From Candidatus Cloacimonadales bacterium (lineage in GTDB: Bacteria; Cloacimonadota; Cloacimonadia; Cloacimonadales; JAFGVF01), in NCBI GenBank assembly GCA_963663475.2, contig CAXXJV010000001.1:388279-452278 (forward strand): a stretch of DNA of 64,000 nt, in the 5' to 3' direction. A program made the translations under genes and the position numbers. Shown piece by piece: positions 4,300 through 41,935 of the stretch; within the stretch, counting starts at the first letter, position 1, and the number at the start of each line of letters is the position of its first letter. The notes beneath the pieces were generated by a model. The model saw only the letters and a program-made list of their open reading frames with translations. It was not told the origin of the DNA and made no database searches.

Positions 4300-4322
4300 T
4301 TTTATTAAGAAATTAATTAGAA

Positions 4323-4349: not shown

Positions 4350-4351
4350 AT

Positions 4352-4400: not shown

Positions 4401-4404
4401 CTTT

Positions 4405-4519: not shown

Positions 4520-4631
4520 CCCTGCCTTACTATCTGTTTGAGGGGTGATGGACGGTTTATCCACCTTCTTCTTTCTTTTTTGCTTTTAGCAAAAATAATT
4601 AGTGAAAATCGTTTTAATTTGTCTTAAGAAC

Positions 4632-20027: not shown

Positions 20028-20189
20028 GATTTAATTATTGTATGTTATAAAAAGTGATTTATCTTGTTTTAAATGCTGTTAAATAAACAATAAGGGAAGA
20101 TAAAATAAATGAAAATTGTGTAAAATATTTATTCAGCTCAAGGATAATTGAGTTTATTTATATTTATCAAAAAAAAGAATGAGGGTAGA

Positions 20190-27514: not shown

Positions 27515-27549
27515 AAAAAAGAAAAAGAGTAAGATAAATATCCTACTCT
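27515..27549 (-). terminator. Rho-independent terminator after the Ton-like operon
   Basis: On the minus strand, a 10-bp stem (AGAGTAGGAT / ATCTTACTCT, one G-U pair) with a 4-nt loop is followed by TTTTCTTTTTT. Confidence 0.7.
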
Positions 27550-27571
27550 TTATAATTTATTCTTAGCTAGA

Positions 27572-29041
27572 TTACTCGAATCTCTGACTAATATTTATTG
27601 TATAAGTTCCAATATCAACTAAAGCTCGACCTTCAATAATTTTTTGTAGATTTGCAATAAAAGTCTTATCATTAATTGAACCTTGTCCTCTTATGATAGC
27701 CTTGATTATCTTATCATCTTTAAAAATTAGACGAAAATCTAACTTACCTCTGATAGTTTTACGTAGTTTATAGCTATTGAATTCTTGATTAATTCTAGGA
27801 AGAATAGCACTAGTAAACCACTCTCGAATCTGAGTCTCTTTTTCATTATCTGTAAGATCTCTTCTTTCGCGTTTAGTTCTTTCTATTTGCCTTTTCTCTA
27901 GTTCTGTATCATCAATTTCTGTAGATTCAATAGTTTCTACTTTTTCAAATCCATCACCTAGATTACTATTTAAAGTTCCAATATCAGCTGTTTCTCCAGA
28001 ACCAATTCTGGCAGTTCTTCTACCTCGAACATCACTAGCTCTAACACCTCTAGCAGACACAACTGCAGTATTTATTTGACTATCAGCTTGTCTTCCTAAG
28101 GCTTCAGCAATTCCACCGTAATCTGAATCTGTATCAACATCGATATCAAAGGATGAGCTAGCCCTTGATGTACCTCTAAGTCCTCTAACTCTACTTCTAA
28201 CCGCTAAGGCTGTACCTGTACCAGCTTGATCACCTCCACCTTCACCAACATTTTGATATCTTTCCTGTGAGTTAGCTTGAGCTGATCGTCTTCTCTGAGC
28301 AATTCTATCTTGAATTCTTTGAGCATCTGCTGCTCTTTGCTCAGCTTCTTCCTGAGCCTTGGCTTCAGCTTCTCCATCTCCCTCTTCTATAATTTCAGGT
28401 TCTTCATAAAATTCAGTAGTTTCCTGACTAATTTCAATTGGAGACTCAACTTGCATACTAACCATAATATTCTCTTCAGTTCTATCAAAGATTGTTTTTG
28501 CTCGGGAAGGAGTATAGGTCCATCCCACAATTGAAGCAAAAATTATTATGGCTAAAATTACAGAGATAACAGTAAAGCGAGTTACTTTTTGCTGAGTAGA
28601 TATAGCTGGCCAACGATTAAGGAGACTAACCAATTTCTTTTGTTCAGCAGTTAGCGGAGCAGGCTTTGGTATGGCTCTGAAGGAAATAGTAGTATTTTCA
28701 TCAATTACTACTTCTCCTTCATAATCTTCATTAAGATATAAACGATTATCTTTGAGCAGGCCTAGACTTTTAATTTCATCAAGAGATAAGTCTTTATCTC
28801 CCTTCTTAACACTAATAGAAAATGATTTTAATAAATTAAAATAGTATTTCCCATTCTCATTTATTATTAAATCATGTTTCTTAGGGAATGAGGGATTGTA
28901 TATCTGCCATAATAGACTTGGGTCCGAACCAATAGTCAGCTTTTTACCAATTAAAAAGTGTTTATTAGTTGTACCTTCAGAAAATGCGACAGAGAATTGC
29001 TTTCCCTTATACAGATATTTTATTAGGAATCTTTTATTCAT
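27572..29041 (-). CDS. TonB-like membrane protein (N-terminal cytoplasmic domain, single TM, charged linker, TonB-C-like end)
   Basis: 489 aa. It is the last gene after ExbB-ExbD-ExbD, with a 1-nt stop/start overlap with the upstream ExbD. TM segment FTVISVILAIIIFASIVGW, acidic/Arg-rich linker and a small C-terminal alpha/beta domain. The assignment is by context and architecture. Confidence 0.45.
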   Translation of the reverse strand: MNKRFLIKYLYKGKQFSVAFSEGTTNKHFLIGKKLTIGSDPSLLWQIYNPSFPKKHDLIINENGKYYFNLLKSFSISVKKGDKDLSLDEIKSLGLLKDNRLYLNEDYEGEVVIDENTTISFRAIPKPAPLTAEQKKLVSLLNRWPAISTQQKVTRFTVISVILAIIIFASIVGWTYTPSRAKTIFDRTEENIMVSMQVESPIEISQETTEFYEEPEIIEEGDGEAEAKAQEEAEQRAADAQRIQDRIAQRRRSAQANSQERYQNVGEGGGDQAGTGTALAVRSRVRGLRGTSRASSSFDIDVDTDSDYGGIAEALGRQADSQINTAVVSARGVRASDVRGRRTARIGSGETADIGTLNSNLGDGFEKVETIESTEIDDTELEKRQIERTKRERRDLTDNEKETQIREWFTSAILPRINQEFNSYKLRKTIRGKLDFRLIFKDDKIIKAIIRGQGSINDKTFIANLQKIIEGRALVDIGTYTINISQRFE

Positions 29042-29637
29042 TATAAACCTCCTAAGCCGTAAGCTGATAGAAGTCTATAATAATCATCAGTTTCTCTTTT
29101 AACAAAATCTGTAGCAAAATAGAGTTTAAACTCTTTAGATTTTGATAGAGTTGTAACTGATGAGTTCTCATCATTCCAAATATCTATAAGCATTGATTTA
29201 ATTGTGTTGATATATTTAAAAGGAGTGTTTCGGTGAGCTTTAACTCTCACTACAACAGGCTTATTGCCAATATTATCTCCAAGTATAGAATGAATAGTAA
29301 CATCTAAAGCGCGAGTTTTAGCTGTCATCACTTCACTTGTAGTATTATTAATGTCTTCAAGCTTTGCTATAGCAATTTGCTCAGTTGAATTTTCACTCTT
29401 ATAAGTTATTACACCTGAATCTCTTCCAGTATAACTTACATTAAGAGATATGATTTTACTATTATCTGCAATCTGTTCTTCAAAGAGTGCTTCTTCAAGT
29501 TCTACACCTTCAGGGACCAAATCAGGGTCGGATGAAACATTGACCATAACAAATAATAACAAAATTGTTAAAATATCAATTAAAGAAGTAATACTCATCT
29601 GCGTAGTTTTTTTTGTTCTGTGTGCTACTGGGCTCAT
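29041..29637 (-). CDS. exbD: ExbD/TolR-family protein (paralog 2)
   Basis: 198 aa with the N-terminal signature ITSLIDILTILLLFVMV and a periplasmic domain. Confidence 0.75.
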   Translation of the reverse strand: MSPVAHRTKKTTQMSITSLIDILTILLLFVMVNVSSDPDLVPEGVELEEALFEEQIADNSKIISLNVSYTGRDSGVITYKSENSTEQIAIAKLEDINNTTSEVMTAKTRALDVTIHSILGDNIGNKPVVVRVKAHRNTPFKYINTIKSMLIDIWNDENSSVTTLSKSKEFKLYFATDFVKRETDDYYRLLSAYGLGGL

Positions 29638-29648
29638 AGTTTACTTCC

Positions 29649-30224
29649 TTATTCGACTTCACCGATCATAATATCGGAAAATTTCATCTTTTTACATAAG
29701 TCCATTGTTTTTACAAAAACACCAAACTTAACATAGTCTTTCGGTATTATAATAATAGGTAAGGACCTATTATCACCTTCAGAGATATTAGAATCACCAT
29801 ATTTATCTTCAAGCATAATTGTACGGTAAGATTTCAAAGCCTCAGATAACTTACTAAAATCAGAAGAAAGAATTTGAGCATACTTTACATCAATTGTATC
29901 ATTTTTACTGAAGGAGAATATTTCTCCCTCTTCATCAACATTGATAGTAAGTTCTAATTTTTTAATTCTTGCCTGATCTTTATCCTTTTTTTTATCTTCA
30001 GATGAAGCAGCTCCACCTGATGCGTTTGGATTAGTCAAATCCAAAGAAATATAAGCAATTGAGACTAAGACCACCATACTCAAGAGCATTGGAATCAGAG
30101 TCACGAATAAGTTCATAATCGGGACTAAATCCACTTCTTGGTGACCAGTGCTTCTATTGGCGTTTCTTCCCTGTGAAGGACTATAGATTTTATTTTTCTT
30201 TCCAACAGCAGGATTAATTCTCAT
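29649..30224 (-). CDS. exbD: ExbD/TolR-family protein (paralog 1)
   Basis: 191 aa with VDLVPIMNLFVTLIPMLL TM signature and a periplasmic domain. Confidence 0.75.
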   Translation of the reverse strand: MRINPAVGKKNKIYSPSQGRNANRSTGHQEVDLVPIMNLFVTLIPMLLSMVVLVSIAYISLDLTNPNASGGAASSEDKKKDKDQARIKKLELTINVDEEGEIFSFSKNDTIDVKYAQILSSDFSKLSEALKSYRTIMLEDKYGDSNISEGDNRSLPIIIIPKDYVKFGVFVKTMDLCKKMKFSDIMIGEVE

Positions 30225-30228
30225 GATA

Positions 30229-31050
30229 TTAGTCCTGTACTTGGTTATTGATCACATTCATTATTTTTACACTGTTAGCATCTAATTCATTAATAATCTT
30301 CTCAGCTCTAGTAGATAAGAAACCTTTAATAAATTGTATAGCGATAGCACCAATAAGTCCTAAAGCTGTAGTACCCATCGCTTGTTTAATACCACCCATA
30401 AGAACTTCAGTTTCTGAGATACCAGAGAAAGCCTGGATAAGACCCATGATAGTACCGAGAAGTCCTAGATAAGTTGATGATTGAGCAAGAAGGTCAAACC
30501 AGTGAAGACCTCTATCGATTTCAGGAATTGTTTGGTAAGCAGCTTCGTTAAAAGCATTTTGAACTTCTTCCTTTAAGCTGTCACCAGTTTTGCCTGAATT
30601 TTTAGCATCTTTATATGCTAATAAACCGATACGATAAATCTGTCCCATTGTAGTTCTTTGAACAAGTTCAGCAGCAGCGATAGCTTCTTTAAGACTACCA
30701 GACTTGACTAAACCTTTAATTTTTAAATGGAATTTGTTACTATCAATTTTCTCTTTAACCATTAACTGGTAAAAGCGAATAAGTGCATAGAATACTGAAA
30801 TTAAAAAGATACCTAGAATAACCCAGGCAAAAACTCCAGATTCTGCAAAAACTCTGATTAAATTTGTTGGCCCAAGTTTTGCAATCCAATCTTCTGAATC
30901 TTCTTCAACTTCGGCTGGAACAGATTCTTCGTTAGCATTTTCTTGAGTTACTTGATTTTCATTGACGGCTACATCTCCGTTATCTTGGGCGAATAAAAAC
31001 CCAAAACAAACAACTAAAAGTAACATAACTAATAATGCAATCTTTCTCAT
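30229..31050 (-). CDS. exbB: MotA/TolQ/ExbB proton-channel protein with an acidic N-terminal extension
   Basis: 273 aa. Signal peptide, acidic stretch of about 40 aa, then the ExbB core (STYLGLLGTIMGLIQAF, TTALGLIGAIAIQF). Confidence 0.85.
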   Translation of the reverse strand: MRKIALLVMLLLVVCFGFLFAQDNGDVAVNENQVTQENANEESVPAEVEEDSEDWIAKLGPTNLIRVFAESGVFAWVILGIFLISVFYALIRFYQLMVKEKIDSNKFHLKIKGLVKSGSLKEAIAAAELVQRTTMGQIYRIGLLAYKDAKNSGKTGDSLKEEVQNAFNEAAYQTIPEIDRGLHWFDLLAQSSTYLGLLGTIMGLIQAFSGISETEVLMGGIKQAMGTTALGLIGAIAIQFIKGFLSTRAEKIINELDANSVKIMNVINNQVQD

Positions 31051-31078
31051 ACGATCTCCTATTTGGTTTTTATATAAT

Positions 31079-31354
31079 TTAGTATAAAACTCTATTAGAT
31101 TTTAATAATTTTTCCATTATGTAGGTTTTAAAGATGAATTCTTCATCTGTTGACATTCTTGAACGAGTAATATCTATGTCAGGTAATCCAGAAGCAAATC
31201 TAGTAACTTGCTTAATTTCGATAGAATCATAGATAGTTTCAACATTACCCTCAACCTCTATATAAACTGCATCATCATCTTGATTAGTCTGTGCATTACA
31301 AAGGTTAAAAGCAGAAACCAGAATAATTACTAATATCAATATTACCTTTTTCAT
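31079..31354 (-). CDS. Small secreted hypothetical protein
   Basis: 91 aa with a signal peptide. It lies 2 nt downstream of the giant TPR gene (stop at 31357) and 28 nt upstream of exbB. Confidence 0.5.
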   Translation of the reverse strand: MKKVILILVIILVSAFNLCNAQTNQDDDAVYIEVEGNVETIYDSIEIKQVTRFASGLPDIDITRSRMSTDEEFIFKTYIMEKLLKSNRVLY

Positions 31355-31356
31355 AA

Positions 31357-34300
31357 TTATCTCCTTTCATTTAGGGTTCGGATTTGTAGATCTATTAACA
31401 ATCCGTTATCTTGCTTAGGGCTATTGACCTCAAAAATAATCACATTTTTACCTTGGACATAGTAGTCTGGACTAATGTCTAGATATGGGGCATCAGGTGG
31501 AGCAAAGTAGTAATATTCTTCGAATCCAACCTGTTGACCGTTTAGATAGATATTAACAGTTTCATTAGCTAAGAAATATATAATACTATCAATAACTTGT
31601 CCAGTGACCTCAAATTCTTTAACAAAGTATTTTACAGTTGGCTGATCTTCTATTACTTCTTCCTCAAGCATAGTTGAATCAGCTAGAGAAGCCACGTTAA
31701 GGGAATCAAGTCCTGTATTTGCCAACATAAGAGAATCTTCTAGTACTTGTGCAGATAAAGTATCTTGGATATTAAGGTCTGTTAGTAGATTATTTGTATC
31801 AACTTGCTTTGTTTCTTCTTGAAGGAGGTCTGTGTTTCTGTACCAAATTGGTATAGCCACAGAATTCTTGAATGCATCTAATTGGTAATAGTCCTCATCA
31901 ATAGTGCCATAACTAACTTGACCCCAGTTAGGATCATCAATTGTTAAAGTTTCTAATGAATCAGCCCCTAACCAAGTATTATCAGTGACAAGATTAAACT
32001 TAACAGCATTGTTGTGAATAAAGAGTTTTTCCTTATCATAAATCATAGCAAAGTTAAAACCGATATTGATATCATCAAATGACTTATTTACTACTTGCAA
32101 TGAGATGGTATTTTGTCCCTTAGAGTAGTTCAAAGATGCAAGATTATTATCATTACTTAAACCACGATAAAGATATGGGAAAGCTGATAGAGAATCTTCA
32201 ATTATCCCATCTGGTAAATATAAATTACTAATATCAACTAAATTATCATTAGCTTTGAAGCTGATAGAAACTTGATCATTGAACCAAAAATCTCCTTCCT
32301 CGACAAATCTGATTCTAGATGCCATAGGTAAGATAGGACATTCGAAGCTAGTTTCAATATGCAAAGAATCACCAGAAGGAATTGTGTAAATCATGAAATC
32401 TCTATATCCATCATTTATCTCACTTTCTTGGATGGCAGAAAAATCTTTACGCATTGAAGCTAAGAAGGGAATTTCTATCTCCTCTTTAGCTACTACTTCT
32501 GAAACACCAACCTTTTGTAAGAAAGCTACAATTTCATCTGTCCCAGGTAGAGGATTTGTTATTCCATCGATATATGTTTCATAAATTGATTTTGCATACC
32601 CAATACCGATATTATCAAATTCAGTAGCATACTGGCCTCTAACTAGATAGATTTCATCTTCATAAGCATAAAGAATCTCATCTTGTTCCTCATAGGTTAA
32701 ATCAGTTCTGCCATAGATGATATTTTGATAATTGACATATTGTCCATTTGGTAAGGTAAGGAATTTAGTAATTTGATTATAAATTAAATCACCACTATAT
32801 TTAGCAATTTTAAATTTAGCATAATCCAACTTATAAATTTCTTCTCTCTTTTCATCAACAGTTAATAAATCACTATCAAAAACTCTTTGGGCATCTTGGT
32901 CTATCAGAGCAAATTGATTTTTCACTAATTCAACAAAGTTATTAATTCTCTTATTTTCACCATATAGGTGAGTATTCCATGTAGTAGCATTGTTAACCTT
33001 AATTCTTTCATTAACTTCTGCAGGAACATCTATAAATTCCATAAATTTGTTGTATCTAATTTCAAGATCAGCTAAGAATGCTTTCTTTTCTTGTTCTCTT
33101 TCATAATCAAGAGTGTATTTATCATAGCGTTCAAGTGATGAAGGTATAGCAATTGTCTCAGCAGGAATACCATTTGCAGTAAAGGTTTCTGCTTGAGCTT
33201 TAAAGTCTTCGATTAGAGATAGCATTCTATCCCATTCTTTATTGCGATAGGCCTTTTTAATCTCCTCATCAATAGGAGATAATTGTTCAACTGCATATCT
33301 AGGATATCTTACTGATGTATTATCCGTTGCGTAAAGTATCTTAATGTATTCAAGATAGTTTTCATCATCTTCTAGTTCTTCATAAAGACTACAAATAAGG
33401 TTGAGGATGTAAATTCTCTCATAGTCAGGGAACTTCAAGTTAAAAGCAACCCATTCTTGGACTTCATCTTCTTTAGATAAAGTTCTACATTTCATCTCAA
33501 TAGCATTGAAATAATAATCTTCAGCCTTTAAGTCTAGAGAAGAAATATCTAATTTATCTCCTTCTTGGCTAGCTCTTTCATAGATTTCCAGCATCTTTTC
33601 AGAAGCTAATAAAGGATCATATGTAGTAAGAGTTGAATCTTGGACAACACCTAATCTGCTTATTAAAATAACAAATGTCTGCTGGTCATTAGGGAATCTT
33701 CCCATAAATGTATCTTCAATTTCTTGTGTTCTTTCTTTATAACCAAGAGAATCTGTTATCGAGATAGCAGCACTATAGTTGTTCCATGCTTCTTCAATTG
33801 TTTTACTTGCATCACCTTGTTCAAGTAAACGACTAACAGCAGTATCGTAATCACCACCAGCAGCATAGAGAGCTATTGCATTTCTACGTAATTCAGCTTT
33901 CTTAGCTTCATCAATAACTGAAGACTGAAGAACTTTTTCCATTTCTTGAGCAGCTTTTACCTTATCTTCCTGGTTATCTGTGCTTTGAAGCTGGCTAATT
34001 TTGGCTGATCTATTATTAAAGATTTCTTTTTCATACTCTGTTTTTTTCTCATCATCAACAAACTCTTTAGCCTTAGCGAAATACTCAATGGAAGAATCAA
34101 TATCACCGTCAGCTTTATATAATTCAGCAAGATTACGGAAGATACTTTCTTTATATTCATCTGAGATATTTAAGTCATTACAAGCTAAGAAGTCTGCTTT
34201 AGCTCCATCATTATCCCCCATTCTCCTCTTAGTTAAACCTCTATAATATAAAAGTTTATAAATAGTTTGGTCTTTATCGGGTATATCTGATGTGGATAGG

Positions 34301-37300
34301 AAATCATAGAATCTATTTGCAATACTTATGTACTGGCTCCTTCTTTCACTTTTAATATCTTCAATTTCTTGAGTACTATAGTTTAAGGTATCAAAATTAG
34401 TAGTATCTGTTATTACAGAAACATTATAAGCCCAACTGTAAGCATTTTGCTCTAAATCAGTCCTAATGTCAGTTTCAGGATTTCTATCAATGAAGTTATA
34501 AACCTTTTCTATACCATAATTATAAGCAGTAGTATCCTGTTGAGATCTCACATATTTCACAATAGCACTAATATTATTTTGATCATATATTTTAAGACGT
34601 TGAGCCCTAATTTCTTCATCAAATCCAACATAATTGGCATATTCCTCTGTTGCATTAGTGAAGGACATTATATTTTCCATGTTAGGATTTGCATCTACTT
34701 TACTATATAAGTCTGGTAAGATGAAATCATCAAAACCTTTTTGAATAACCTTAACATATGGACTTAAATCTTGATTCTTATTGTACTCATACCAATCACT
34801 AGTATAGCCATATCTTGCAATAGCTTTTCGATATTCTCTTTCACCTCTGATATCTAAAGAGTCTCCTAGTTCAAGAGAATAACGACTCATAGTTGTAATG
34901 ATTGAATCTGTATAGACAGGGTTTGTAATAGCATATAAATCTACTCTAGACCTAGCGTCATAAAGAGTAATAATATCCTCAAATTCATCAAAGATTCTTT
35001 TCTTCTCTAATAGTTTTTGAAAAATATTATTAGCAGTGGATTCATCATAGAGGGTGAAGAGCTTATTCATAACATAATCTTTTGACTTCAGTTCAACATT
35101 TGGCAAGTAGTCAACTTCATTTAATGAATAAACGATTATGTCTTCAGCAGCACTATACTTATTCTTTTGATATTCAGTAAACATATCCTTATCTGCAAGC
35201 AAGATTTCTAAATCTGCAATAGCTGCTTCATAGTTTTGAATAGCCATTTTGTGCCATGCTCTTTGGAATAAAGCTTCATACTTTTGATCAAGACTACCAA
35301 GTGCATATATTTGGTCATAAACTTTGATAGAAATACCGACATACTTTGCTGGGTCATCAGCATCAACAGCAATATCAAAATATAATTTAGCAAGACGTAA
35401 CATTGATTCAATTTGATACTTACTGTTAACATCCTTACTAAGTTCTAAGTAGTTATCAATTACTTCTCTATATTTACTTACTGATTTTGTGACAGATTCT
35501 GGTCGAGGTTGGTAGAAATAGTTTTCATCTTTCATTTTTTCTTCACGAAGATTAGCTATTTCTAAATCTAAAATTTGATTTTTATAATAAGCCAAATTGT
35601 AGAGGACCACATCTTTCTGTGGGAAATCAGGGTTTAATTCAAGAACCTTTTGATAGTTATTATAGATTAAATTATAGTTGTTACTATATATAATAGTAGC
35701 AATTTCAGCTAAATTAAAGTATAGTTTAAAATTATTATTGAAGTTATTATTCTTGAAGATAAAAGCATTTGTTCTATTATATATGCTTTCATACTGGTCT
35801 TCATATTGGCCATATTCAGCCTCAGAAAGAGCTAAAGAATCACGATCTGCTTCTTCTAAACGACTTTTATAATTCTCGTTTAATTTGCGGAAATCTAAAT
35901 CTAAAGCTATGAAATCAACATAAGTTTGTTGTTCATTTTTTATTTGATTAAATTTATTAAAAGAGTTAGAGTAAATTGATATTTTACCATCTAACTCTTT
36001 AAATTTATCCTTAACTTCTGCTTCAGCTTTAGCTGCAACAGTCTCATAATATGTATCTATAACTTTTCTTCTTTTAACTTCTAACTTACTTTCTTGAGCT
36101 AAAAATTCTTCTACTTTCTCTTCAGCTAATTCTTGTTTTTCAGATAAGTTTGGGAACTCAGCTAAATCAAACTTAGCCTTAACTCTTATCTCATCTAAAT
36201 TCTCTTGTTCATCCTTAAGAAGCTGGCGTAGTTCGCTATTTTTTTGAGGATAAGATCTTGTTTTATCTACTAAATTAGAAAGATTAACAATATATTTCTT
36301 CTTGAGATAGAGTTGATTAGCATACCAATAGGCTCTCAAGAATTGATCATCATTAGGACTTTCGATATCACTAAGAAGTTCTTCAGTAATATCAAGTAGG
36401 TAATCTTCCTCTTTATTTGCCCTGTCTCGATTTGCGATAGCGATTAATTCGTCTTTAGGTCTATTTCTATATTGATCAATAAGATCAAGTTCAACAAAAT
36501 AGGTTTCAGTTCTTTCAATGAAGGTTAGTTCGAGTTCTTTGATAAGCTGAACAGATCTAGGATCTAAGAAAGAAATCTTTTCTTCTAAAACTAATTGGTT
36601 TGCAAGAACTGCTTCTTCCTTACTAGTTATTTGCTCTCTTAAAATATTTTTTCTAGTTTCTTCAGTTTCCATTAAGAGGTTATTTCTTAAAGATCTAATT
36701 TCATTCATGAGATTTCTATTCTGAAGTAAACTAGTAAAATAATCATCTACTCTTGCTTGGTAACTAGTCATTAAGTTTGAAGCACTATCTCCATTATTAA
36801 GTTCATGGTCAATCAGTATTAAGTTGTAAAGAGTCTGAACATAGAAATCATTAGCATTTTTTGATTCAAGTAATCTTTCAAAAGTGGTTTTTGCCTTTTG
36901 GAGATTACCCGCTTTTCTGTGAGCAATACCTATTTCATAGATAACTTCACTTATGTTATCATTGTTCAATTGGCTATATGCTTGATAATAAGAAACAGCT
37001 GTTTCGGGATCTCCGTAATGAGAAAACAATCTTGCAATAGAGAGTAGAACAAAGTCATAGTAAGGTGTATCTGGCGAAAAGTTGTTTTGTAAAACATCAA
37101 AAATAGCTGTAGCTTCCTCAATTCTTCCTTCAGAAAGAGAAATGAGAGCTAAAGTCGCAGTTGATCTGAGCGTATATTCAGTATCAATAGCAGCTTCTTC
37201 CAGATATTTTTGAGCATCATTAAATCTACCGATGTTGTAGAGAGATTGTCCATATCTGAACTTTTGTGATGCTAATTCAAATTCAGGATACTCTTCAACT

Positions 37301-37800
37301 AATTCCACATATTCTTGATCTTTTCCTGATTTAAATAGAGCTAATTTCCAGTAACGAATGGTTACGTTTTTACGGTTACTGTCTGGATATCTTCTTACTA
37401 AATCATTTGCTTTGAGAGTTACCATATCCCAATCTTGAGAATAAACAGCTTTTTTGCAATCGAGAAATAGCAAATCGTCTTGTAGGCTTGCTACATTACG
37501 ATAGGCCTTAAACATCATACTTCTGATGAAATTAGAATATTCTCGATCATTCTCTTTTATAAGAGTGAAGTAGGCTTCTTCATCTTCGGCAAATTTATCT
37601 TCTATTCCAGATATATTATTAGCTCTAAGCAAGTCATTTACTTGAGTAATTCTCTCTTCTTCAATAGCATTACGAATCTCGTCTAAACTGGCAACATCTC
37701 CCCCATTATCTGCAGGAGAAGTTTGAGAGTAAAGAGTTAGTAATGATAAGTTTATAAGAAGAAGGATCAACAACATCTTCTTTATACACATACTACCCAC
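31357..37800 (-). CDS. Giant (2147 aa) TPR-repeat protein with a non-TPR C-terminal region
   Basis: An uninterrupted ORF with a signal-like N-terminus. TPR-like helical repeats run through most of the length, and the last roughly 400 aa look beta-rich. The track start is GTG; ATG alternatives are at 37791 and 37776. Confidence 0.8.
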   Translation of the reverse strand: MGSMCIKKMLLILLLINLSLLTLYSQTSPADNGGDVASLDEIRNAIEEERITQVNDLLRANNISGIEDKFAEDEEAYFTLIKENDREYSNFIRSMMFKAYRNVASLQDDLLFLDCKKAVYSQDWDMVTLKANDLVRRYPDSNRKNVTIRYWKLALFKSGKDQEYVELVEEYPEFELASQKFRYGQSLYNIGRFNDAQKYLEEAAIDTEYTLRSTATLALISLSEGRIEEATAIFDVLQNNFSPDTPYYDFVLLSIARLFSHYGDPETAVSYYQAYSQLNNDNISEVIYEIGIAHRKAGNLQKAKTTFERLLESKNANDFYVQTLYNLILIDHELNNGDSASNLMTSYQARVDDYFTSLLQNRNLMNEIRSLRNNLLMETEETRKNILREQITSKEEAVLANQLVLEEKISFLDPRSVQLIKELELTFIERTETYFVELDLIDQYRNRPKDELIAIANRDRANKEEDYLLDITEELLSDIESPNDDQFLRAYWYANQLYLKKKYIVNLSNLVDKTRSYPQKNSELRQLLKDEQENLDEIRVKAKFDLAEFPNLSEKQELAEEKVEEFLAQESKLEVKRRKVIDTYYETVAAKAEAEVKDKFKELDGKISIYSNSFNKFNQIKNEQQTYVDFIALDLDFRKLNENYKSRLEEADRDSLALSEAEYGQYEDQYESIYNRTNAFIFKNNNFNNNFKLYFNLAEIATIIYSNNYNLIYNNYQKVLELNPDFPQKDVVLYNLAYYKNQILDLEIANLREEKMKDENYFYQPRPESVTKSVSKYREVIDNYLELSKDVNSKYQIESMLRLAKLYFDIAVDADDPAKYVGISIKVYDQIYALGSLDQKYEALFQRAWHKMAIQNYEAAIADLEILLADKDMFTEYQKNKYSAAEDIIVYSLNEVDYLPNVELKSKDYVMNKLFTLYDESTANNIFQKLLEKKRIFDEFEDIITLYDARSRVDLYAITNPVYTDSIITTMSRYSLELGDSLDIRGEREYRKAIARYGYTSDWYEYNKNQDLSPYVKVIQKGFDDFILPDLYSKVDANPNMENIMSFTNATEEYANYVGFDEEIRAQRLKIYDQNNISAIVKYVRSQQDTTAYNYGIEKVYNFIDRNPETDIRTDLEQNAYSWAYNVSVITDTTNFDTLNYSTQEIEDIKSERRSQYISIANRFYDFLSTSDIPDKDQTIYKLLYYRGLTKRRMGDNDGAKADFLACNDLNISDEYKESIFRNLAELYKADGDIDSSIEYFAKAKEFVDDEKKTEYEKEIFNNRSAKISQLQSTDNQEDKVKAAQEMEKVLQSSVIDEAKKAELRRNAIALYAAGGDYDTAVSRLLEQGDASKTIEEAWNNYSAAISITDSLGYKERTQEIEDTFMGRFPNDQQTFVILISRLGVVQDSTLTTYDPLLASEKMLEIYERASQEGDKLDISSLDLKAEDYYFNAIEMKCRTLSKEDEVQEWVAFNLKFPDYERIYILNLICSLYEELEDDENYLEYIKILYATDNTSVRYPRYAVEQLSPIDEEIKKAYRNKEWDRMLSLIEDFKAQAETFTANGIPAETIAIPSSLERYDKYTLDYEREQEKKAFLADLEIRYNKFMEFIDVPAEVNERIKVNNATTWNTHLYGENKRINNFVELVKNQFALIDQDAQRVFDSDLLTVDEKREEIYKLDYAKFKIAKYSGDLIYNQITKFLTLPNGQYVNYQNIIYGRTDLTYEEQDEILYAYEDEIYLVRGQYATEFDNIGIGYAKSIYETYIDGITNPLPGTDEIVAFLQKVGVSEVVAKEEIEIPFLASMRKDFSAIQESEINDGYRDFMIYTIPSGDSLHIETSFECPILPMASRIRFVEEGDFWFNDQVSISFKANDNLVDISNLYLPDGIIEDSLSAFPYLYRGLSNDNNLASLNYSKGQNTISLQVVNKSFDDINIGFNFAMIYDKEKLFIHNNAVKFNLVTDNTWLGADSLETLTIDDPNWGQVSYGTIDEDYYQLDAFKNSVAIPIWYRNTDLLQEETKQVDTNNLLTDLNIQDTLSAQVLEDSLMLANTGLDSLNVASLADSTMLEEEVIEDQPTVKYFVKEFEVTGQVIDSIIYFLANETVNIYLNGQQVGFEEYYYFAPPDAPYLDISPDYYVQGKNVIIFEVNSPKQDNGLLIDLQIRTLNERR

Positions 37801-37825
37801 TTATCAAATTATTAAGTTAATTAAT

Positions 37826-38827
37826 TTACTCTAATTCTTCTAACTCATCAATTAGGTTATCTAACTCTGACTGTTTTTTCAATTCAGCTTCTCTTAATGC
37901 TCTAATTTGTTCTAAGATACTAGAACCAGTACCTTGGTTTGTATTAGTTTCAAGGTTCTGTCTTTGGGTTCTAACTCTTTCAGGATTTGCTTCAAAAACA
38001 CCTTGTTTAGTAGCTTTAGAGTCTGCCCAACGTGTAATTCTGTATTGGATATTGAAAGCCATTTTTAGGTTGTCTTGATTTTCCTTAATAAACTCTTCAA
38101 TTTCAATAATAGAGTATTGAAGGGCTAGGTTATTCCAGTTATATTTAGCACCGAAGTTAATGGCATGACCACTTTGTTCAGCGAAAACACTGAAATTGTT
38201 CTTAGGGAAAAGAGCAGTTGGATAGTATTCAAAAGTTCCAAAGAGTCCGTTAAAGTCTTGAGCAAGATCTCTTTGTCCTACGAAACGATTAGTTCCGAGT
38301 CCAACGGTAACATATAGTTGCATATCTCCTAAAATGTTAACATCTCTAAGAGCCCATGATTTAGTTGCAGCAACGTAGAAAGAGTTCTTTTCATAAGTAG
38401 TTGCTTGTGGGATATCTGCCCAATCTTCAAAGTCTTCGTCTTCATAATCAACAGCGTCAGTACCAACTTTTGAGAAGAGGTTATCGACACCTAGGGTAAT
38501 ACCTGGGTATTCAAAAGTTTCTTGAACTAATTGATATTTGAAGTTAGCATAAAAAACTTCATCTCCTGTATATACAAAACCTAATTCTGCTCTATCGAAA
38601 AGTCCGTATTTAGCTTGAATAACGTAATTGTATTCATAATCAGCAGGGTCAGTAGATCCTTGTTCTAAACCGTCTCTTAAATATGATGCAAAATTGACTG
38701 AGATTTGATTTGCAGGCATAACAAAACCGTCAGGCACATCAATATTGCCTAGGGTTCCAAATGGAACAGCTACAAGAGCATTAATACAAAGTAAAACACT
38801 CATAATAAGTAAAATTTTTTCTCTCAT
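37826..38827 (-). CDS. Putative outer-membrane beta-barrel protein with a C-terminal coiled-coil tail
   Basis: Signal peptide, alternating beta-strand pattern with aromatic girdles, and a C-terminal EQIRALREAELKKQSELDNLIDELEELE. ATG 38827 with an AAGGAG SD is preferred over GTG 38830. Confidence 0.5.
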   Translation of the reverse strand: MREKILLIMSVLLCINALVAVPFGTLGNIDVPDGFVMPANQISVNFASYLRDGLEQGSTDPADYEYNYVIQAKYGLFDRAELGFVYTGDEVFYANFKYQLVQETFEYPGITLGVDNLFSKVGTDAVDYEDEDFEDWADIPQATTYEKNSFYVAATKSWALRDVNILGDMQLYVTVGLGTNRFVGQRDLAQDFNGLFGTFEYYPTALFPKNNFSVFAEQSGHAINFGAKYNWNNLALQYSIIEIEEFIKENQDNLKMAFNIQYRITRWADSKATKQGVFEANPERVRTQRQNLETNTNQGTGSSILEQIRALREAELKKQSELDNLIDELEELE

Positions 38828-38957
38828 CACAATTTCTCCTTTATGTACACTTAATCGTTAATAATCAAGTTTTTTTGAATTTTCTTTTTTTAGTCATTTT
38901 CACTCATCTCTAATTAAATGAATTGACAAAATAGAGTCAAGCTTTTTTTTTCATTTT

Positions 38958-39350
38958 ATGAATAAATCTAACAAGAACAAAATATTTGGTAAATTAGGTG
39001 AAAGTTTAGCAAGTAGTTATTTAGCAAAAAATGGCTTTGTAATAGTAGAGAAGAACTTTCGTTGTTTTTCTGGCGAGATAGATATTATTGCACAAAAAGA
39101 AGATTTATTAATAATTGTTGAGGTCAAATCTAGAAAAAATATTGATAGTGATGAGACCATGCTATCTATTACAAAGTCTAAGCAAAGAAAAATAAGCCGA
39201 GCTACTGCTGATTTCATAGATAAGAACCAGCAGTATTCGGACAATTTTATCAGGTTTGATATAATAACAGTTATCAAGCATCCTTACTTGGATGAGTATT
39301 CAATCAATCATTATGAAGATGCTTTCTCTTATATTGCAGATGAAAGGTAA
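38958..39350 (+). CDS. yraN: YraN-family (UPF0102) endonuclease-like protein
   Basis: 130 aa with YLAKNGFVIVEKNFRCFSGEIDIIAQKEDLLIIVEVKSR, the family core. Confidence 0.85.
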   Translation: MNKSNKNKIFGKLGESLASSYLAKNGFVIVEKNFRCFSGEIDIIAQKEDLLIIVEVKSRKNIDSDETMLSITKSKQRKISRATADFIDKNQQYSDNFIRFDIITVIKHPYLDEYSINHYEDAFSYIADER

Positions 39351-39447: not shown

Positions 39448-40836
39448 TTATTTAAGTCTTTCTACATCAAAATCTTGACCGAGGTAGAATTTATAATCTG
39501 CAGAGACATTAATATCGTTATCATTATAAACATATATTAACTTATGCCCGTTGTTCATATTTACATCAAAGAAGGTGTAGCTAGCTAATTTTTTTGTAGC
39601 ATATCTCCAGATTTCGTATTCCTTATCATTGAAAACAGCTCTTCTTTCCAATAGAGCGTCAGCATCATACTTATCAGTTGCATCTAACTCGCCAACCATA
39701 AATTTTTCAATATCATCAGGAGGACCGTACAAGATATAAATTTTGCCTCTATCAGAAGCCCAGCCTGGTTTATGATGGGAGAATTTTTGATTTGAGTAAT
39801 CAATTCTTTCTTTTAGGGTAGAGATAAGCATTTCAGGGGTGATAGCCTGGGAATTAGCATATCTTTCCCAGAATTTATTTATTTCTTGTCTTTTCCTAGA
39901 GGAAGTGAAGGCATCCCAAGAACTTTGAGTATTAGAATAGCCAAAATATCTCATAAGCTTAAATTCATCATCGCGATTATCAAATATGTAATAAGTTTCA
40001 CCAGGGTAATCTGAGATTGAGAAATCAGTATAAGTCCTATTGTTTTCAACTTGGTTAAGTGATTTTACGGTAACATAATAGATGCCTTTAGGTAACTTTT
40101 GAATGTTAATAGCTTGGGTAATGTTAGCTGTTTCTGAATTACTTAATCCACTTTTCTGCATAAAATCGACTTGCTGATCAAAAGAATCTTTTACTTCAAT
40201 TATGTAGTCATATTTCCACTGAGATTTGGAGTGTCTTGTTAGACCTTGTAATTGAAAGTAGGCATAAAGACTATCAATAGTCTCTTTATAAAATATTCTT
40301 GAAGGGTTGGATTTATAAAGTTTTTTACCTCTATACATATATTTAAACTTATCATTAACTTGTGTGCTGACATAGTCATTTAGTTCAACATCACTAATAT
40401 AGCGGTCATTAATTAGCTTAAGGTCTTTTTGGAAGATATAGGTATCTTTACTTACCATATCAATAAATTTCATTTCCAAGGTATTGCCCGAGCTGGGGTA
40501 ATCAAAGCTATATCTATCGATATGTTCACGAGTTTTGGATTCAATATCTTTTAGATCAGAGACAATAATTTGTTCAGCAAAAGCCTCCTGGTGGAGTATT
40601 TTATTACTATTGTATATTTTAACTTCAATTCTTAACCCTGCAATAGCTCCACTCTTATCTTCGTTAATTTTAAAAGTAAGGTCTTGATATTTCACAGAAT
40701 AGTTAACATCAATAATGGTGCGTTGATTTGCATCAAAAAAGTTAAGACCTTCAACACTAATATTCAAGTTCTTTGCCCAAGACATTGCTATCATTGATAA
40801 TAGCACTAATAAAATGAATGTTTTTTTAGAAATCAT
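39448..40836 (-). CDS. GWxTD-domain protein (paralog B)
   Basis: C-terminal HKPGWASDRGKIYILYGPPDDIE. Signal peptide from MISKKTFILLVLL. I place the start at ATG 40836 rather than 40887. Confidence 0.75.
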   Translation of the reverse strand: MISKKTFILLVLLSMIAMSWAKNLNISVEGLNFFDANQRTIIDVNYSVKYQDLTFKINEDKSGAIAGLRIEVKIYNSNKILHQEAFAEQIIVSDLKDIESKTREHIDRYSFDYPSSGNTLEMKFIDMVSKDTYIFQKDLKLINDRYISDVELNDYVSTQVNDKFKYMYRGKKLYKSNPSRIFYKETIDSLYAYFQLQGLTRHSKSQWKYDYIIEVKDSFDQQVDFMQKSGLSNSETANITQAINIQKLPKGIYYVTVKSLNQVENNRTYTDFSISDYPGETYYIFDNRDDEFKLMRYFGYSNTQSSWDAFTSSRKRQEINKFWERYANSQAITPEMLISTLKERIDYSNQKFSHHKPGWASDRGKIYILYGPPDDIEKFMVGELDATDKYDADALLERRAVFNDKEYEIWRYATKKLASYTFFDVNMNNGHKLIYVYNDNDINVSADYKFYLGQDFDVERLK

Positions 40837-41935
40837 ACTCTTCTTCTTTGTTGTATAGTTTGTAGTCTTCGATTCTAGATCGATCATAAAAAATGAAAGT
40901 TTTATTTAACCGATAATAGTGCCAGGTTTGCGTTGGATATCTCCCTACAGGATTATTATCAACACTTATTTCATCAGGTTCACCAAACTTTATATAAATC
41001 CTACCACGATCAGTTTGCCAACCTTGCTTATAACGGTGAACTGAGAACTTTCTGTCTGCCTGTAAAATCCTATTATAGAAAAGATCTTGCAAACTAGAAT
41101 TCTGAGATTCTTTAGGATTGTTAGAAGCCCAAAATTGCAATACTTTCTCAGAATCGGTCCAATTCTTATTACGATTAATTTCCTTCCAAGTTTTATCATT
41201 AACAATATATTTTATTTGACTGAGTTGGTCTTCCCAGCTGTATTTCTTCTGAAAACTATTAAGATATTTTTCCAGTTTAAGTTCTGATTGATATAGGTCA
41301 TTAGCCAGTTTAAACTCAATATAATTGTTAGTAAAATCTTCTATAAGGTAGTCAGCTTTAAGTTTTGTTAAGAGTTCCTTACTTGTAGGAAGTTCACTTA
41401 CCTTTCTGTTATTTTTAGATTCACTAACAAATTTTAATGTCTGAGTTTCAGTTTCATACAACTGGTAGAGATAGATATTATTGGAAGTTTCAATATCTTC
41501 CCAAGAAAGGACTTCCATATAGATATTTTCCATTTTTTTCACTAAGTACAAAGCTGAAAAGTGTTGATTTTTTTCTACAAAAAACTCAAATTTTTCTTCT
41601 TTTTTATCATTTCTTAGCTTGTTGTTTAATTTTAGAAAAGCTGTATATTGGCCAGGTTCTACTTGTGTTTTCAAGAAGAATATCAAACGTTGGTTATTCT
41701 CAAGTTTATCAGACTTTAATTCAATATCTTCTTTTGCTAAATAGACTGATTTATTATTCTCATCAAAGAGCTCGAAAATCATCCGATAAGCAATTTCACC
41801 TTTCTTACTAAAAAGATCATTGCTGTCTATTCTCAGAGTAAGAAGAGTCTCATCACCTACCAATTGCGGGCTAAGATCAGCTGCAAATAAGAGATTGACT
41901 AGCAAGAAAAAGATTATCATCAAAGCTACTTTCAT
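40826..41935 (-). CDS. GWxTD-domain protein (paralog A)
   Basis: C-terminal YKQGWQTDRGRIYIKFGEPDEIS and a signal peptide. Its start overlaps the dnaE stop (ATGA). Confidence 0.75.
   Translation of the reverse strand: MKVALMIIFFLLVNLLFAADLSPQLVGDETLLTLRIDSNDLFSKKGEIAYRMIFELFDENNKSVYLAKEDIELKSDKLENNQRLIFFLKTQVEPGQYTAFLKLNNKLRNDKKEEKFEFFVEKNQHFSALYLVKKMENIYMEVLSWEDIETSNNIYLYQLYETETQTLKFVSESKNNRKVSELPTSKELLTKLKADYLIEDFTNNYIEFKLANDLYQSELKLEKYLNSFQKKYSWEDQLSQIKYIVNDKTWKEINRNKNWTDSEKVLQFWASNNPKESQNSSLQDLFYNRILQADRKFSVHRYKQGWQTDRGRIYIKFGEPDEISVDNNPVGRYPTQTWHYYRLNKTFIFYDRSRIEDYKLYNKEEEYDF

Follow-up and report, generated by a model that had tools for sequence, protein, structure and literature searches.

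Described systems of related architecture

The core of the Agl-Glt system consists of aglR, aglQ/aglS, gltG (whose product combines an FHA domain, a transmembrane helix, and a TonB_C domain) and the TPR genes gltD, gltE, and gltC, which are clustered in nongliding bacteria; GltF and the Glt barrels are listed as confined to Myxococcales and Bdellovibrionales (Luciano 2011; PMC3169522). A structural model joins AglR5 to an AglQ/AglS heterodimer, with the C-terminal domain (CTD) of GltG predicted to contact GltD (PMC11761067), and the Asp has been reported in both AglQ and AglS (PMC9389320). Luciano also lists an Agl-Glt "core complex" for Fibrobacter, Fisuc_1892-1897, which includes TPR proteins of 746 and 1292 aa, an ExbB of 212 aa, an ExbD of 164 aa, and a TonB of 308 aa (PMC3169522, Table S3). 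With their neighbors, these genes correspond to FSU_2396-2403 of F. succinogenes S85: OmpA (FSU_2396), two TPR proteins (FSU_2397, 2398), ExbB (FSU_2400), two ExbD (FSU_2401, 2402), and TonB (FSU_2403). The proteins of this cluster increase in abundance on cellulose, and a multi-protein complex of vesicles, which includes cellulases, contains the OmpA and one of the TPR proteins (PMC6851124). Finally, clusters encoding a TPR protein, a TolQ-like protein, two heterologous TolR-like proteins, and a vWA "force transducer" have been proposed as new systems driven by the proton motive force (PMF) (Williams-Jones et al. 2025; PMC12204202).

The operon described here lies in a stretch of 64,000 nucleotides (hereafter, the window) from a Candidatus Cloacimonadales bacterium. 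Fibrobacterota and Cloacimonadota are related phyla of the FCB group. The FSU_2396-2403 cluster shares its gene order with the operon: an outer-membrane (OM) protein, TPR proteins, ExbB, two ExbD, and a TonB-family protein. The sequence-only reading of the window had mentioned a Fibrobacter cluster of TPR, OmpA-like, and ExbBD genes, and such a cluster does exist (PMC6851124). The cellulose and vesicle-complex data pertain to Fibrobacter. The two differ in that the Fibrobacter TonB is short (308 aa) and recognized as a TonB family member, whereas the Cloacimonadota transducer is longer (489 aa) and unrecognized, and in that the Fibrobacter OM protein is annotated as OmpA family.

Organization and conservation of the operon

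Seven ORFs follow each other on the minus strand, at the coordinates claimed in the sequence-only reading. In order of transcription, they encode an OM barrel (334 aa, 38830-37826), a giant TPR protein (2147 aa, 37800-31357), a small secreted protein (91 aa, 31354-31079), an ExbB-like protein (273 aa, 31050-30229), two ExbD paralogs (ExbD1, 191 aa, 30224-29649; ExbD2, 198 aa, 29637-29041), and a transducer (489 aa, 29041-27572). The ORF listing also reproduces the claimed spacing, with gaps of 25, 2, 28, 4, and 11 nt and one overlap of 1 nt. Just 3' of the transducer gene, an intrinsic-terminator-like hairpin on the minus strand (27524..27551; 12-bp stem and 4-nt loop, then the T-run TTCTTTTTTA) agrees with the single terminator placed there previously, and an operon end at this point fits the observation that the downstream neighbor differs among related loci. 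Two further terminator-like sites fall within the block (30829-30810 and 31936-31919), and these are no excess over chance (five such sites found versus 5.2 expected). The promoter of the operon presumably lies in the divergent intergenic region of 127 nt between the barrel gene and a UPF0102 gene (38831..38957), which matches no Rfam family.

Synteny with other genomes was where the proposed association could have failed. The barrel, the giant, and the exbB-exbD-exbD-transducer genes proved syntenic across divergent Cloacimonadota, among orthologs that diverge to 22% identity for the giant and 32% for the barrel. The order barrel, TPR gene or genes, small protein, ExbB, ExbD with Asn, ExbD with Asp, and transducer is found in Cloacimonadales (loci L001-L007), in the distant Cloacimonadota L008 and L015, and also on a contig of candidate division WOR-3 (L016). 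In Fermentibacteraceae (L012), the barrel is followed by a TPR gene that the contig end cuts off after 1335 aa or more. Among metagenome loci with adequate flanks, the block is complete in 18 of 19. The operon occurs in every sampled Cloacimonadota lineage, each time at a housekeeping locus next to dnaE.

Of 25 window ORFs scanned, none was recognized as a TonB-dependent receptor, TolB, or Pal, as had been claimed; the scan took in all ORFs of 400 aa or more and left out about 13 smaller ones (at least 150 aa), where a short Pal-like lipoprotein could sit.

Components of the motor, transducer, and envelope

The three motor proteins match Pfam families: MotA_ExbB for the ExbB/TolQ-like proton-channel subunit (1.7e-21) and ExbD for ExbD1 (2.4e-9) and ExbD2 (3e-6). 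The ExbB-like protein starts with a signal peptide and extends into the periplasm with an acidic segment. Its best PDB match is TolQ, as is its best NCBIfam model (1.6e-16), at 60.7 bits against a cut-off of 221; the NCBIfam equivalog scores of the operon proteins are all far under the cut-offs. It retains the channel residues Thr200 and Thr227/228, but the Glu of the third transmembrane helix (TM3; E176 in ExbB, E173 in TolQ) is absent, its site being occupied by Gln223 in the alignment with PDB TolQ and ExbB chains (GIKQAMGTT versus GIAEAL(L/I)ATA). Relatives carry Q, M, L, I, K, T, or V at this site, and only one of 76 has Glu. ExbD1 has Asn38 (nt 30111-30113) at the site of the essential Asp (D25 of ExbD, D23 of TolR), as judged by alignment to E. 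coli reference sequences; its motif, VPIMNLF (TVLNLF in WOR-3), is invariant in all independently found orthologs, including those of L008, L015, and WOR-3. ExbD2 retains the Asp (D21, nt 29575-29577, motif SLIDIL), as do all aligned orthologs and 61 of 61 metagenome sequences with a readable motif.

Pfam assigned no family to the 489-aa, 334-aa, and 91-aa proteins; the labels "TonB-like" and "OM barrel" were therefore tested by structure prediction. The transducer is predicted to be bitopic. Its cytoplasmic part has 155 residues, with a beta-rich domain (aa 1 to ~130) modeled by AlphaFold2 (AF2) at low confidence, and is followed by a transmembrane (TM) helix (aa 156-176, nt 28514-28576), a charged linker of 209 residues with a helix at 223-263 and only two Pro, and a TonB-CTD-like domain (aa 395-489, nt 27575-27859). 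The latter is modeled with a pLDDT of ~90 as alpha-beta-beta-alpha-beta, and the five best Foldseek matches in PDB are all TonB-family CTDs (H. pylori TonB in two entries, HasB, FusB, and TbpA-bound TonB), at weak E-values (0.07-0.6). Thus, the last 95 residues appear to fold like a TonB CTD, which agrees with the "TonB-like" label. Neither TonB_C nor FHA was matched in Pfam by the window protein or by any of 12 orthologs. The last gene of the WOR-3 locus, in contrast, does match TonB_C above the gathering score (1.3e-5, 26.0 bits), and its N terminus has weak FHA/YscD matches. BLAST detects no similarity between the window and WOR-3 transducers, and hhalign gives a probability of just 6% for their N-terminal domains. 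The TM helix lacks His in 66 of 66 relatives. The CTD also occurs, at 66-67% identity, in separate VWA lipoproteins encoded elsewhere.

The motor is atypical, with Asn in ExbD1, an ExbB without the TM3 Glu, and a transducer helix without His. It shares with canonical Ton and Tol the MotA_ExbB and ExbD families, the channel Thr residues, and a C-terminal fold like TonB or TolA domain III, and with Tol also a TPR partner (CpoB there). Unlike them, the operon has a heteromeric ExbD pair with one Asp, an ExbB without that Glu, and a transducer that lacks the SHLS/His motif and carries a cytoplasmic domain; TolB, Pal, and a TonB-dependent receptor are missing from it. The vWA clusters differ in another way: their transducers end in vWA and keep the SHLS/His motor-binding motif (PMC12204202), whereas the Cloacimonadota transducer has a TonB-CTD-like end and a TM helix without His.

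In the 334-aa protein, a signal peptide precedes a 12-stranded beta-barrel (aa 43-265, nt 38036-38704), which a disordered linker connects to helices at the C terminus (aa 283-297 and 304-333, nt 37832-37984). AF2 modeled it confidently from a 50-sequence alignment (mean pLDDT 84.5, pTM 0.74), and its top Foldseek matches in PDB are OM barrels, namely FapF, KdgM, Omp33, and a designed barrel of 12 strands (E-values from 1.6e-5 to 5e-4), in line with the OM barrel with a coiled-coil tail described from the sequence. The tail is expected to be periplasmic, because homologs carry OmpA_C, LysM, or TPR domains C-terminal to the barrel. Pfam YjbH (PF06082) is matched by 19 of 52 homologs (best 1.6e-9), but the window barrel itself has no Pfam match and stays below the threshold of this YjbH/GfcD family, whose model spans 658 positions versus its ~334 aa. 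More distant relatives are solitary (L017, L098) or adjoin Wza- and Wzc-like genes in polysaccharide loci (L013, L014), whereas the window barrel is tied to a motor operon.

The TPR giant is secreted, with a signal peptide; its start is uncertain by eight codons (2139 aa in the JGI gene call). It matches TPR_2 (1.3e-9), TPR_12 (1.1e-8), and further TPR families of Pfam; the repeats lie around aa 184-331 (nt 36808-37251) and around aa 1187-1244. Elsewhere the protein is helical over long stretches, and it becomes beta-rich toward the C terminus, from about aa 1790. All 13 orthologs with at least 40% identity come from Cloacimonadales; other lineages have a single gene of ~1950 aa or two genes (663+1717 or 673+1462; 514+968 in WOR-3). 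The C-terminal ~105 aa (31360..31674) have no Pfam match, and a profile of this segment matches the galactose-binding-like beta-sandwich of carbohydrate-active enzymes in PDB: carbohydrate esterase FI8 (4.2e-4), sialate O-acetylesterase (2.3e-3), the sugar-binding domain of GH2 (7e-3), and also beta-galactosidase, rhamnosidase, and mannosidase. The similarity is borderline (4e-4) yet consistent across matches, and the domain is possibly a carbohydrate-binding module.

The 91-aa protein begins with a signal peptide, carries a conserved motif at its C terminus (KLLKSNRVLY), and matched no Pfam or NCBIfam family. It is kept in the same slot, between the TPR and motor genes, in Cloacimonadota loci (49 metagenome loci); in WOR-3, a 137-aa ORF fills this slot.

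Proposed machine, alternatives, and neighboring genes

We suggest, with a probability of roughly 0.6, that the operon builds a proton-powered machine joining the inner membrane to an OM barrel, in the architectural class of Agl-Glt and FSU_2396-2403. By analogy with ExbB5D2-TonB, TolQ5R2-TolA, and AglR5QS-GltG, a pentamer of ExbB would enclose an ExbD1/ExbD2 heterodimer, proton flow via the single Asp would power this motor, and the TM helix of the transducer would dock onto the pentamer. The linker would span the periplasm and the CTD engage the TPR giant, as predicted for the GltG CTD and GltD; the giant would be a scaffold joining the periplasmic tail of the barrel, and the 91-aa protein, in a GltF-like position, may be an adaptor. 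The output would be mechanical work on an OM or surface assembly rather than the opening of a TonB-dependent receptor. A glycan may be the partner (peptidoglycan, or a polysaccharide that is exported or lies at the surface), as suggested by the glycan-binding-like domain of the giant and by the relation of the barrel to YjbH.

The likeness to Agl-Glt extends to one TolQ/ExbB-like gene with two differing TolR/ExbD-like genes; to the layout of GltG (cytoplasmic beta-rich domain, TM helix, long disordered linker, TonB-CTD-like domain); to large secreted TPR proteins (GltD/E/C), an adjoining small secreted protein, and OM barrels; and to the single cluster seen in nongliding bacteria. To our knowledge, no gliding is known in Cloacimonadota. 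Unlike in Agl-Glt, the N-terminal domain of the transducer is not recognizable as FHA, one 2147-aa fusion with a glycan-binding-like end replaces the several TPR proteins, the YjbH-related barrel with its helical tail is not GltA/B/H, and GltI/GltJ, AglZ, and MglA partners are absent from the block; AglQ and AglS are both reported to have the Asp (PMC9389320), whereas ExbD1 has Asn. Homology to Glt components is putative, with architecture and gene order as its basis.

A clearly less probable alternative is that the operon substitutes for Tol-Pal in a lineage supposed to lack tolB-pal: a TolA-like transducer, together with the motor, would exert a pull on the barrel as an anchor via a CpoB-like TPR protein, and so stabilize or constrict the OM at division. 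The presence of the operon beside dnaE in all sampled lineages would suit such a role, as would the TolQ best matches of ExbB, the charged, partly helical, and Pro-poor linker, resembling TolA domain II, and the peptidoglycan-binding OmpA_C or LysM tails of barrel relatives; the glycan-binding-like domain of the giant could also bind peptidoglycan. Moreover, tol-pal loci are not identifiable in Bacteroidetes, and CpoB is a TPR protein (PMC12204202, whose coverage does not extend to Cloacimonadota). However, the block has no TolB or Pal homolog, the TolQ score is far under its cut-off, TolA has no counterpart of the 155-residue cytoplasmic domain, and both copies in the TolR homodimer have the Asp.

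It is more doubtful still that the barrel is an energized conduit, i.e., a gated channel for glycan or polymer export or import opened by the TonB-like domain, with the giant as periplasmic chaperone or substrate binder; the barrel would then be either a TonB-dependent transporter of an atypical kind or a secretion pore like YjbH/FapF. Its homologs match an exopolysaccharide family with distant members in Wza/Wzc-type loci, its best structural matches include a secretion channel (FapF) and an oligogalacturonate porin (KdgM), the giant bears a galactose-binding-like domain, and the FSU_2400-2403 motor was proposed to serve cellodextrin uptake through an unidentified barrel (Raut 2019; PMC6851124). 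Yet we identified no plug domain or TonB box in the barrel, which is itself below a YjbH match; Foldseek likeness among 12-strand barrels reflects fold, not function; and glycosyltransferase, Wza/Wzc, and polymer-synthesis genes are absent in or beside the block in all Cloacimonadota loci examined.

That the operon is an ordinary Ton system, energizing receptors encoded elsewhere, with merely co-located TPR and barrel genes, is very improbable: exbB-exbD-exbD-tonB sets with two ExbD and a nearby TPR gene are common in the FCB group, the motor genes belong to standard Pfam families, and the WOR-3 counterpart passes the TonB_C threshold, but in 18 of 19 loci the motor comes with the barrel and giant, a grouping that also extends across phyla and has gaps of 2-28 nt, the transducer has a large cytoplasmic domain and neither a TM His nor a Pro-rich spacer, ExbD1 and ExbB lack the Asp and the TM3 Glu, and the 25 ORFs scanned in the 64-kb window include no TonB-dependent receptor. 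Canonical TonB-dependent uptake by the operon is unlikely. The earlier suggestion, a dedicated machine that spans the envelope and is driven by the PMF, as opposed to canonical uptake of siderophores, is supported by synteny, by the Fibrobacter cluster, and by the noncanonical transducer, with its 155-residue cytoplasmic domain, TM helix without His, and two Pro in a 209-residue linker.

Upstream of the operon, and separated from it by the opposite-strand UPF0102 gene, lie two GWxTD-domain genes on the minus strand (39448..41935; Pfam GWxTD_dom 3e-15 and 1.3e-14). They are conserved neighbors and candidate members of the system: of 19 metagenome loci, 15 have a GWxTD gene upstream of the barrel and 18 have UPF0102 there, and the same neighborhood is seen in L001, L002, L008, and L015.

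Gene order and conservation of the operon

The seven-gene operon at 27572-38830 is a variant of a known, functionally unsolved type of system, and it stands out by its phylum-wide fixation, its single-Asp stator and its newly defined outer-membrane (OM) and glycan-binding-like parts. The ORF listing returned seven minus-strand genes at exactly the coordinates assigned in the sequence-only reading: an OM barrel (38830-37826, 334 aa), a giant TPR protein (37800-31357, 2147 aa), a small protein (31354-31079, 91 aa), ExbB (31050-30229, 273 aa), the ExbD paralogs ExbD1 (30224-29649, 191 aa) and ExbD2 (29637-29041, 198 aa), and a transducer (29041-27572, 489 aa). The reported spacing was also reproduced, with gaps of 25, 2, 28, 4 and 11 nt and a 1-nt overlap, and the terminator placed 3' of the last gene was recovered as a 12-bp hairpin with a T-run at 27551-27524. 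Within the block, terminator-like and promoter-like matches were no more numerous than in shuffled sequence, and an Rfam scan in and ahead of it gave no family, and no riboswitch or other RNA element. The operon has the same G+C (0.30-0.34) as the remaining window. Its downstream neighbors differ between metagenome loci, which fits an operon ending at the terminator. The upstream neighbors are conserved: dnaE (41932-45366, minus strand), one or two GWxTD genes (here 40826-41935 and 39448-40887, both minus) and a UPF0102 gene on the opposite strand (38958-39350, plus). In 19 Cloacimonadota metagenome loci, UPF0102 lies upstream in 18 and GWxTD in 15. The two GWxTD ORFs as listed share 62 nt (40826-40887), with a similar overlap among the gene calls of L002, another Cloacimonadales locus; the downstream GWxTD gene probably has a later start codon. 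Literature searches on GWxTD and on Cloacimonadota TonB yielded nothing relevant.

The association of barrel and giant with exbBD, which the sequence-only reading expected to recur in other genomes, extends well beyond close orthologs, with the whole gene order kept. Orthologs of the giant at 40% identity or more number only 13, all from Cloacimonadales. The order is nevertheless kept in two distant Cloacimonadota loci: L008, where the barrel is 32% and the giant 22% identical, and L015, where the giant is encoded by two genes (663 and 1717 aa), as it also is in the WOR-3 locus L016 and others. The 80 metagenome loci found via ExbD1 have the components on the same strand and in the same order, and barrel, giant, ExbB, ExbD1, ExbD2 and transducer are complete in 18 of the 19 with enough flanking sequence. 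In L016, the order is barrel (308 aa), two TPR proteins (514 and 968 aa), small protein (137 aa), ExbB (207 aa), an ExbD-like protein with Asn (225 aa), an ExbD with Asp (203 aa) and finally a 617-aa protein that matches Pfam TonB_C (1.3e-5) and, weakly at its N-terminus, FHA/YscD (E 0.02-0.04). This locus also has a LysM-NlpC/P60 peptidoglycan hydrolase gene immediately upstream of the barrel and, sharing 4 nt with the end of the transducer gene, an additional gene (334 aa; 19623-20627, plus strand) that Pfam does not match; both are absent from the Cloacimonadota loci. On a Fermentibacteraceae contig, the barrel is followed by a TPR gene that runs for at least 1335 aa up to the contig end. 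More distant barrel relatives are solitary (L017, L098) or belong to Wza/Wzc-type polysaccharide loci (L013, L014). In the latter, which are export loci of other phyla, the barrel homologs (L013 6824-8431; L014 10001-11635 and 17934-19577) are fused to CarboxypepD_reg+OmpA_C or CarboxypepD_reg+TPR and adjoin SLBB (Wza-like) and Wzz/GNVR/AAA_31 (Wzc-like) genes.

An atypical motor and its transducer

ExbB matches Pfam MotA_ExbB (1.7e-21), and the adjoining genes for ExbD1 and ExbD2 encode two separate conserved families that both match Pfam ExbD (2.4e-9 and 3e-6, respectively). Asn38 of ExbD1 aligns with ExbD D25 and TolR D23, positions numbered on what we take to be the E. coli reference sequences, and this Asn is present in every independently recovered ortholog, including that of WOR-3. 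The same count in the metagenome loci (80/80) is circular, as the search pattern contained NLF, and we do not count it as evidence. ExbD2 keeps its Asp (D21) in every independently recovered ortholog, again including WOR-3. Both channel Thr residues are kept in ExbB, and alignment checked against PDB chains places its Gln223 at ExbB E176 and TolQ E173, a position occupied in relatives by Q, M, L, I, K, T or V. The motor is thus atypical in three respects: an Asn in ExbD1, no TM3 Glu in ExbB, and no His in the transducer helix, the last in 66/66 transducer relatives.

We modeled the transducer with AlphaFold2 (AF2) from 12 orthologs. Residues 395-489 form a domain with a pLDDT of about 90 and an alpha-beta-beta-alpha-beta topology. 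Its top five matches by fold in the PDB are without exception C-terminal domains of the TonB family (two entries of H. pylori TonB, HasB, FusB, and TonB bound to TbpA), with further TonB and TolA domains lower in the list. The E-values are weak (0.07-0.6) and of the same order as those given for GltG/GltJ (PMC11761067). The protein had been called TonB-like, and the TonB-CTD-like fold of this domain bears the label out. The remainder begins with a beta-rich domain, modeled at low confidence, and a TM helix at 156-176. The linker spans 209 residues, among which Glu, Arg, Ala and Gly are frequent and Pro occurs just twice; a single helix is predicted in it. The N-terminal pattern IGSD...FPKKHDLII...G.YY.NL is FHA-like to the eye. 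The searches gave this resemblance no support: neither Pfam (12 full-length and 15 N-terminal sequences) nor a profile search of the PDB detected FHA, and an hhalign comparison with the N-terminus of the WOR-3 protein did not either. PDB sequence searches with ExbD1, ExbD2 or the full transducer profile returned nothing useful.

The transducer C-terminal domain (27575-27859, minus strand) shares 66-67% identity with the last ~90 aa of VWA lipoproteins of 727 and 731 aa, one encoded in the same genome as the window (P0026) and one in locus L011 (P0027). This identity suggests a docking partner shared by the transducer and the lipoproteins. L011 carries tandem VWA genes (837-3032 and 3054-5288), of which only the first has the domain. 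We do not regard the VWA lipoproteins as members of the operon locus, as they lie at a separate locus beside oxidative-stress genes.

Barrel, giant and small protein

Pfam has no family for the transducer, the barrel or the small protein, and a PDB sequence search with the barrel profile was uninformative. The AF2 model of the barrel, built from 50 homologs (pLDDT 84.5, pTM 0.74), shows a 12-stranded region (residues 43-265) and, after a disordered linker, helices at 283-297 and 304-333, in agreement with the earlier description of an OM barrel with a coiled-coil tail. Its PDB fold neighbors are all OM barrels, the best 12-stranded ones being FapF, KdgM and a designed 12-strand barrel. The protein has a signal peptide, a closed antiparallel barrel and an aromatic-ended last strand (...AFNIQYRI; AFAISYLF in relatives). 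The window barrel itself does not match YjbH (PF06082) at E <= 0.1. A profile run against 1.84 billion representative proteins gave 216 relatives, however, and 19 of 52 sampled match Pfam YjbH, so that by this transitive link through homologs the barrel classifies as a remote YjbH relative. In many relatives the barrel is followed by CarboxypepD_reg+OmpA_C, CarboxypepD_reg+TPR, LysM or caspase domains, which places the tail in the periplasm. A concatenated barrel, small protein and ExbB query returned only 3 protein matches, all of them distant barrels.

The giant has a signal peptide and matches only TPR families in Pfam; Pfam searches with the C-terminal 300-470 aa from three lineages gave nothing significant. 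A narrower profile of its last ~105 residues matched, in the PDB, the galactose-binding-like domain of carbohydrate-active enzymes, with carbohydrate esterase FI8 (4.2e-4), sialate O-acetylesterase (2.3e-3) and a GH2 sugar-binding domain (7e-3) as best matches and more glycosidases below them. The match is borderline, yet the top matches are all of one domain type, and we consider that the giant probably ends in a glycan-binding-like domain. Together with the YjbH kinship, this suggests that the machine's partner may be peptidoglycan or a surface polysaccharide.

Cleavage of the predicted signal peptides of ExbB (31050-30985), the small protein (31354-31290) and the giant (37800-37720), all on the minus strand, would leave an N-terminal Gln (FA/QDN, NA/QTN and YS/QTS, with the slash at the cleavage site). 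This recalls the 'Q-rule' for Bacteroidetes (PMC5837995).

Relation to the Agl-Glt core complex and possible roles

The Myxococcus gliding machine evolved from a 'core complex' whose role in non-gliding bacteria has stayed unsolved since 2011. This Agl-Glt core comprises aglR, aglQ, aglS, gltG (FHA+TM+TonB_C) and the TPR genes gltD/E/C, and its genes form clusters of unsolved function in Geobacter, in Fibrobacter and in Gamma- and Betaproteobacteria (Luciano 2011, PMC3169522). Like it, the operon has one TolQ/ExbB-like gene (corresponding to AglR) and two distinct TolR/ExbD-like genes (AglQ and AglS). Its transducer has a TM helix and a TonB-CTD-like fold, and no FHA domain was detected in it, so that its match to GltG is partial at most; its TPR giant with a signal peptide may correspond to the secreted TPR proteins GltD, GltE and GltC. 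Unlike AglQ and AglS, both reported with a conserved Asp (PMC9389320), ExbD1 has Asn38. We therefore treat the operon as a variant of the same architectural class, likened to the Agl-Glt core by architecture and gene order and not as a demonstrated member, because one TolR-like subunit has no Asp, FHA was not detected and the likeness to the Glt proteins is architectural.

In Fibrobacter, Table S3 of PMC3169522 lists Fisuc_1892 (TPR, 746 aa), 1893 (TPR, 1292 aa), 1894 (ExbB, 212 aa), 1896 (ExbD, 164 aa) and 1897 (TonB family, 308 aa), and Raut 2019 (PMC6851124) reports FSU_2396 (OmpA), 2397/2398 (TPR), 2400 (ExbB), 2401/2402 (ExbD) and 2403 (TonB). Judging from gene order and annotations, the two lists appear to describe one cluster. 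The TPR, OmpA and ExbBD cluster mentioned for Fibrobacter in the sequence-only reading exists. Its FSU_ proteins are more abundant on cellulose, and the OmpA protein and the TPR protein FSU_2397 were found in a vesicle multi-protein complex (PMC6851124). Fibrobacter, WOR-3 and Cloacimonadota share the order OM protein, TPR protein(s), motor with two ExbD genes, transducer. Elsewhere, TPR-tolQ-tolR-tolR-vWA 'force transducer' clusters occur in other phyla (Williams-Jones 2025, PMC12204202), whereas the VWA lipoproteins of the window genome are encoded separately and share their C-terminus with the transducer. The cataloguing of 5:2-type motor systems with paired unlike TolR/ExbD subunits is only now under way.

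In the structural model of Agl-Glt (PMC11761067), the motor is a heteromeric AglR5-AglQ/AglS; GltG docks on AglR by its TM helix and the domain next to it, and wraps GltD with its linker and CTD; GltF is an adaptor, and the TPR protein GltC lies beneath the OM barrels. Every element of this model has a positional counterpart in the operon. By analogy, an ExbB pentamer would enclose a heterodimer of ExbD1 and ExbD2 in which a single Asp can be protonated. The transducer would dock via its TM helix, span the periplasm with its linker and contact the giant TPR scaffold through its CTD; the scaffold would be tied to the periplasmic helical tail of the barrel, with the small protein as a putative adaptor. 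Whether a 5:2 motor can run on one protonatable Asp is a question for which this operon, with its invariant Asn in one of the stator subunits, offers a natural experiment.

We give about one chance in four to the full reading, in which the operon would be an ancient FCB-group system related to the core of the myxobacterial gliding motor, would run on a single-Asp heteromeric stator (ExbD-Asn/ExbD-Asp, ExbB without TM3 Glu) and would serve Cloacimonadota and WOR-3 as an essential envelope machine, acting as a Tol-Pal replacement or as a PMF-gated glycan conduit via its YjbH-type barrel, with the VWA lipoproteins that carry the same docking domain as exchangeable clients. The system is fixed phylum-wide in the uncultured Cloacimonadota, which are important in anaerobic digesters, and occurs also in WOR-3. 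The two physiological roles compete, and both are possible. No tolB or pal was found in the block or in the 25 window ORFs scanned, which include all of at least 400 aa (about 13 smaller ones lie outside the scan), nor in the gene calls of the related loci that were examined; a Tol-Pal substitute, if real, would bear on OM stabilization in the FCB group. By tying the motor to a defined OM partner (the YjbH-related barrel with its 12 strands) as well as to a glycan-binding-like domain, the operon yields testable hypotheses on the output.

An ordinary Ton system is unlikely: the TM helix has no His, the linker has only two Pro, Pfam TonB_C matched none of 12 transducer orthologs, and ExbB scores 40.5 bits against the cut-off of 206 for the NCBIfam ExbB equivalog (TIGR02797). 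The proposal of a dedicated PMF-driven envelope-spanning machine rather than canonical siderophore uptake is supported. Membership in a canonical Tol-Pal system was rejected, given that neither tolB nor pal was found in the block or the 25 scanned window ORFs and that scores lie far below the NCBIfam cut-offs for the TolQ (60.7 versus 221 bits) and TolR (15.8 versus 127 bits) equivalogs. Zorya or another anti-phage defense system was dismissed, as the only PADLOC match among the seven proteins was a generic, MotA-level one of ExbB to ZorA (E 0.0036), and a chromosomal position fixed across the phylum argues against a defense island.

Elsewhere in the window, which has no flagellar genes, a 423-aa protein (58478-59749, minus strand) carries a FapA (flagellar assembly protein A) beta-solenoid domain. 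Two plus-strand genes are predicted to encode cargo of type IX secretion. The product of one (18381-20027) combines an LTD domain with Por_Secre_tail; that of the other (20148-24071) is a gingipain-like C25 peptidase of 1307 aa whose C-terminal domain is of the CHU_C type. The gene next after the peptidase is a radical SAM/SPASM gene (24082-25101), and the C25/radical-SAM pair also adjoins in the Cloacimonadales loci L001 and L002.
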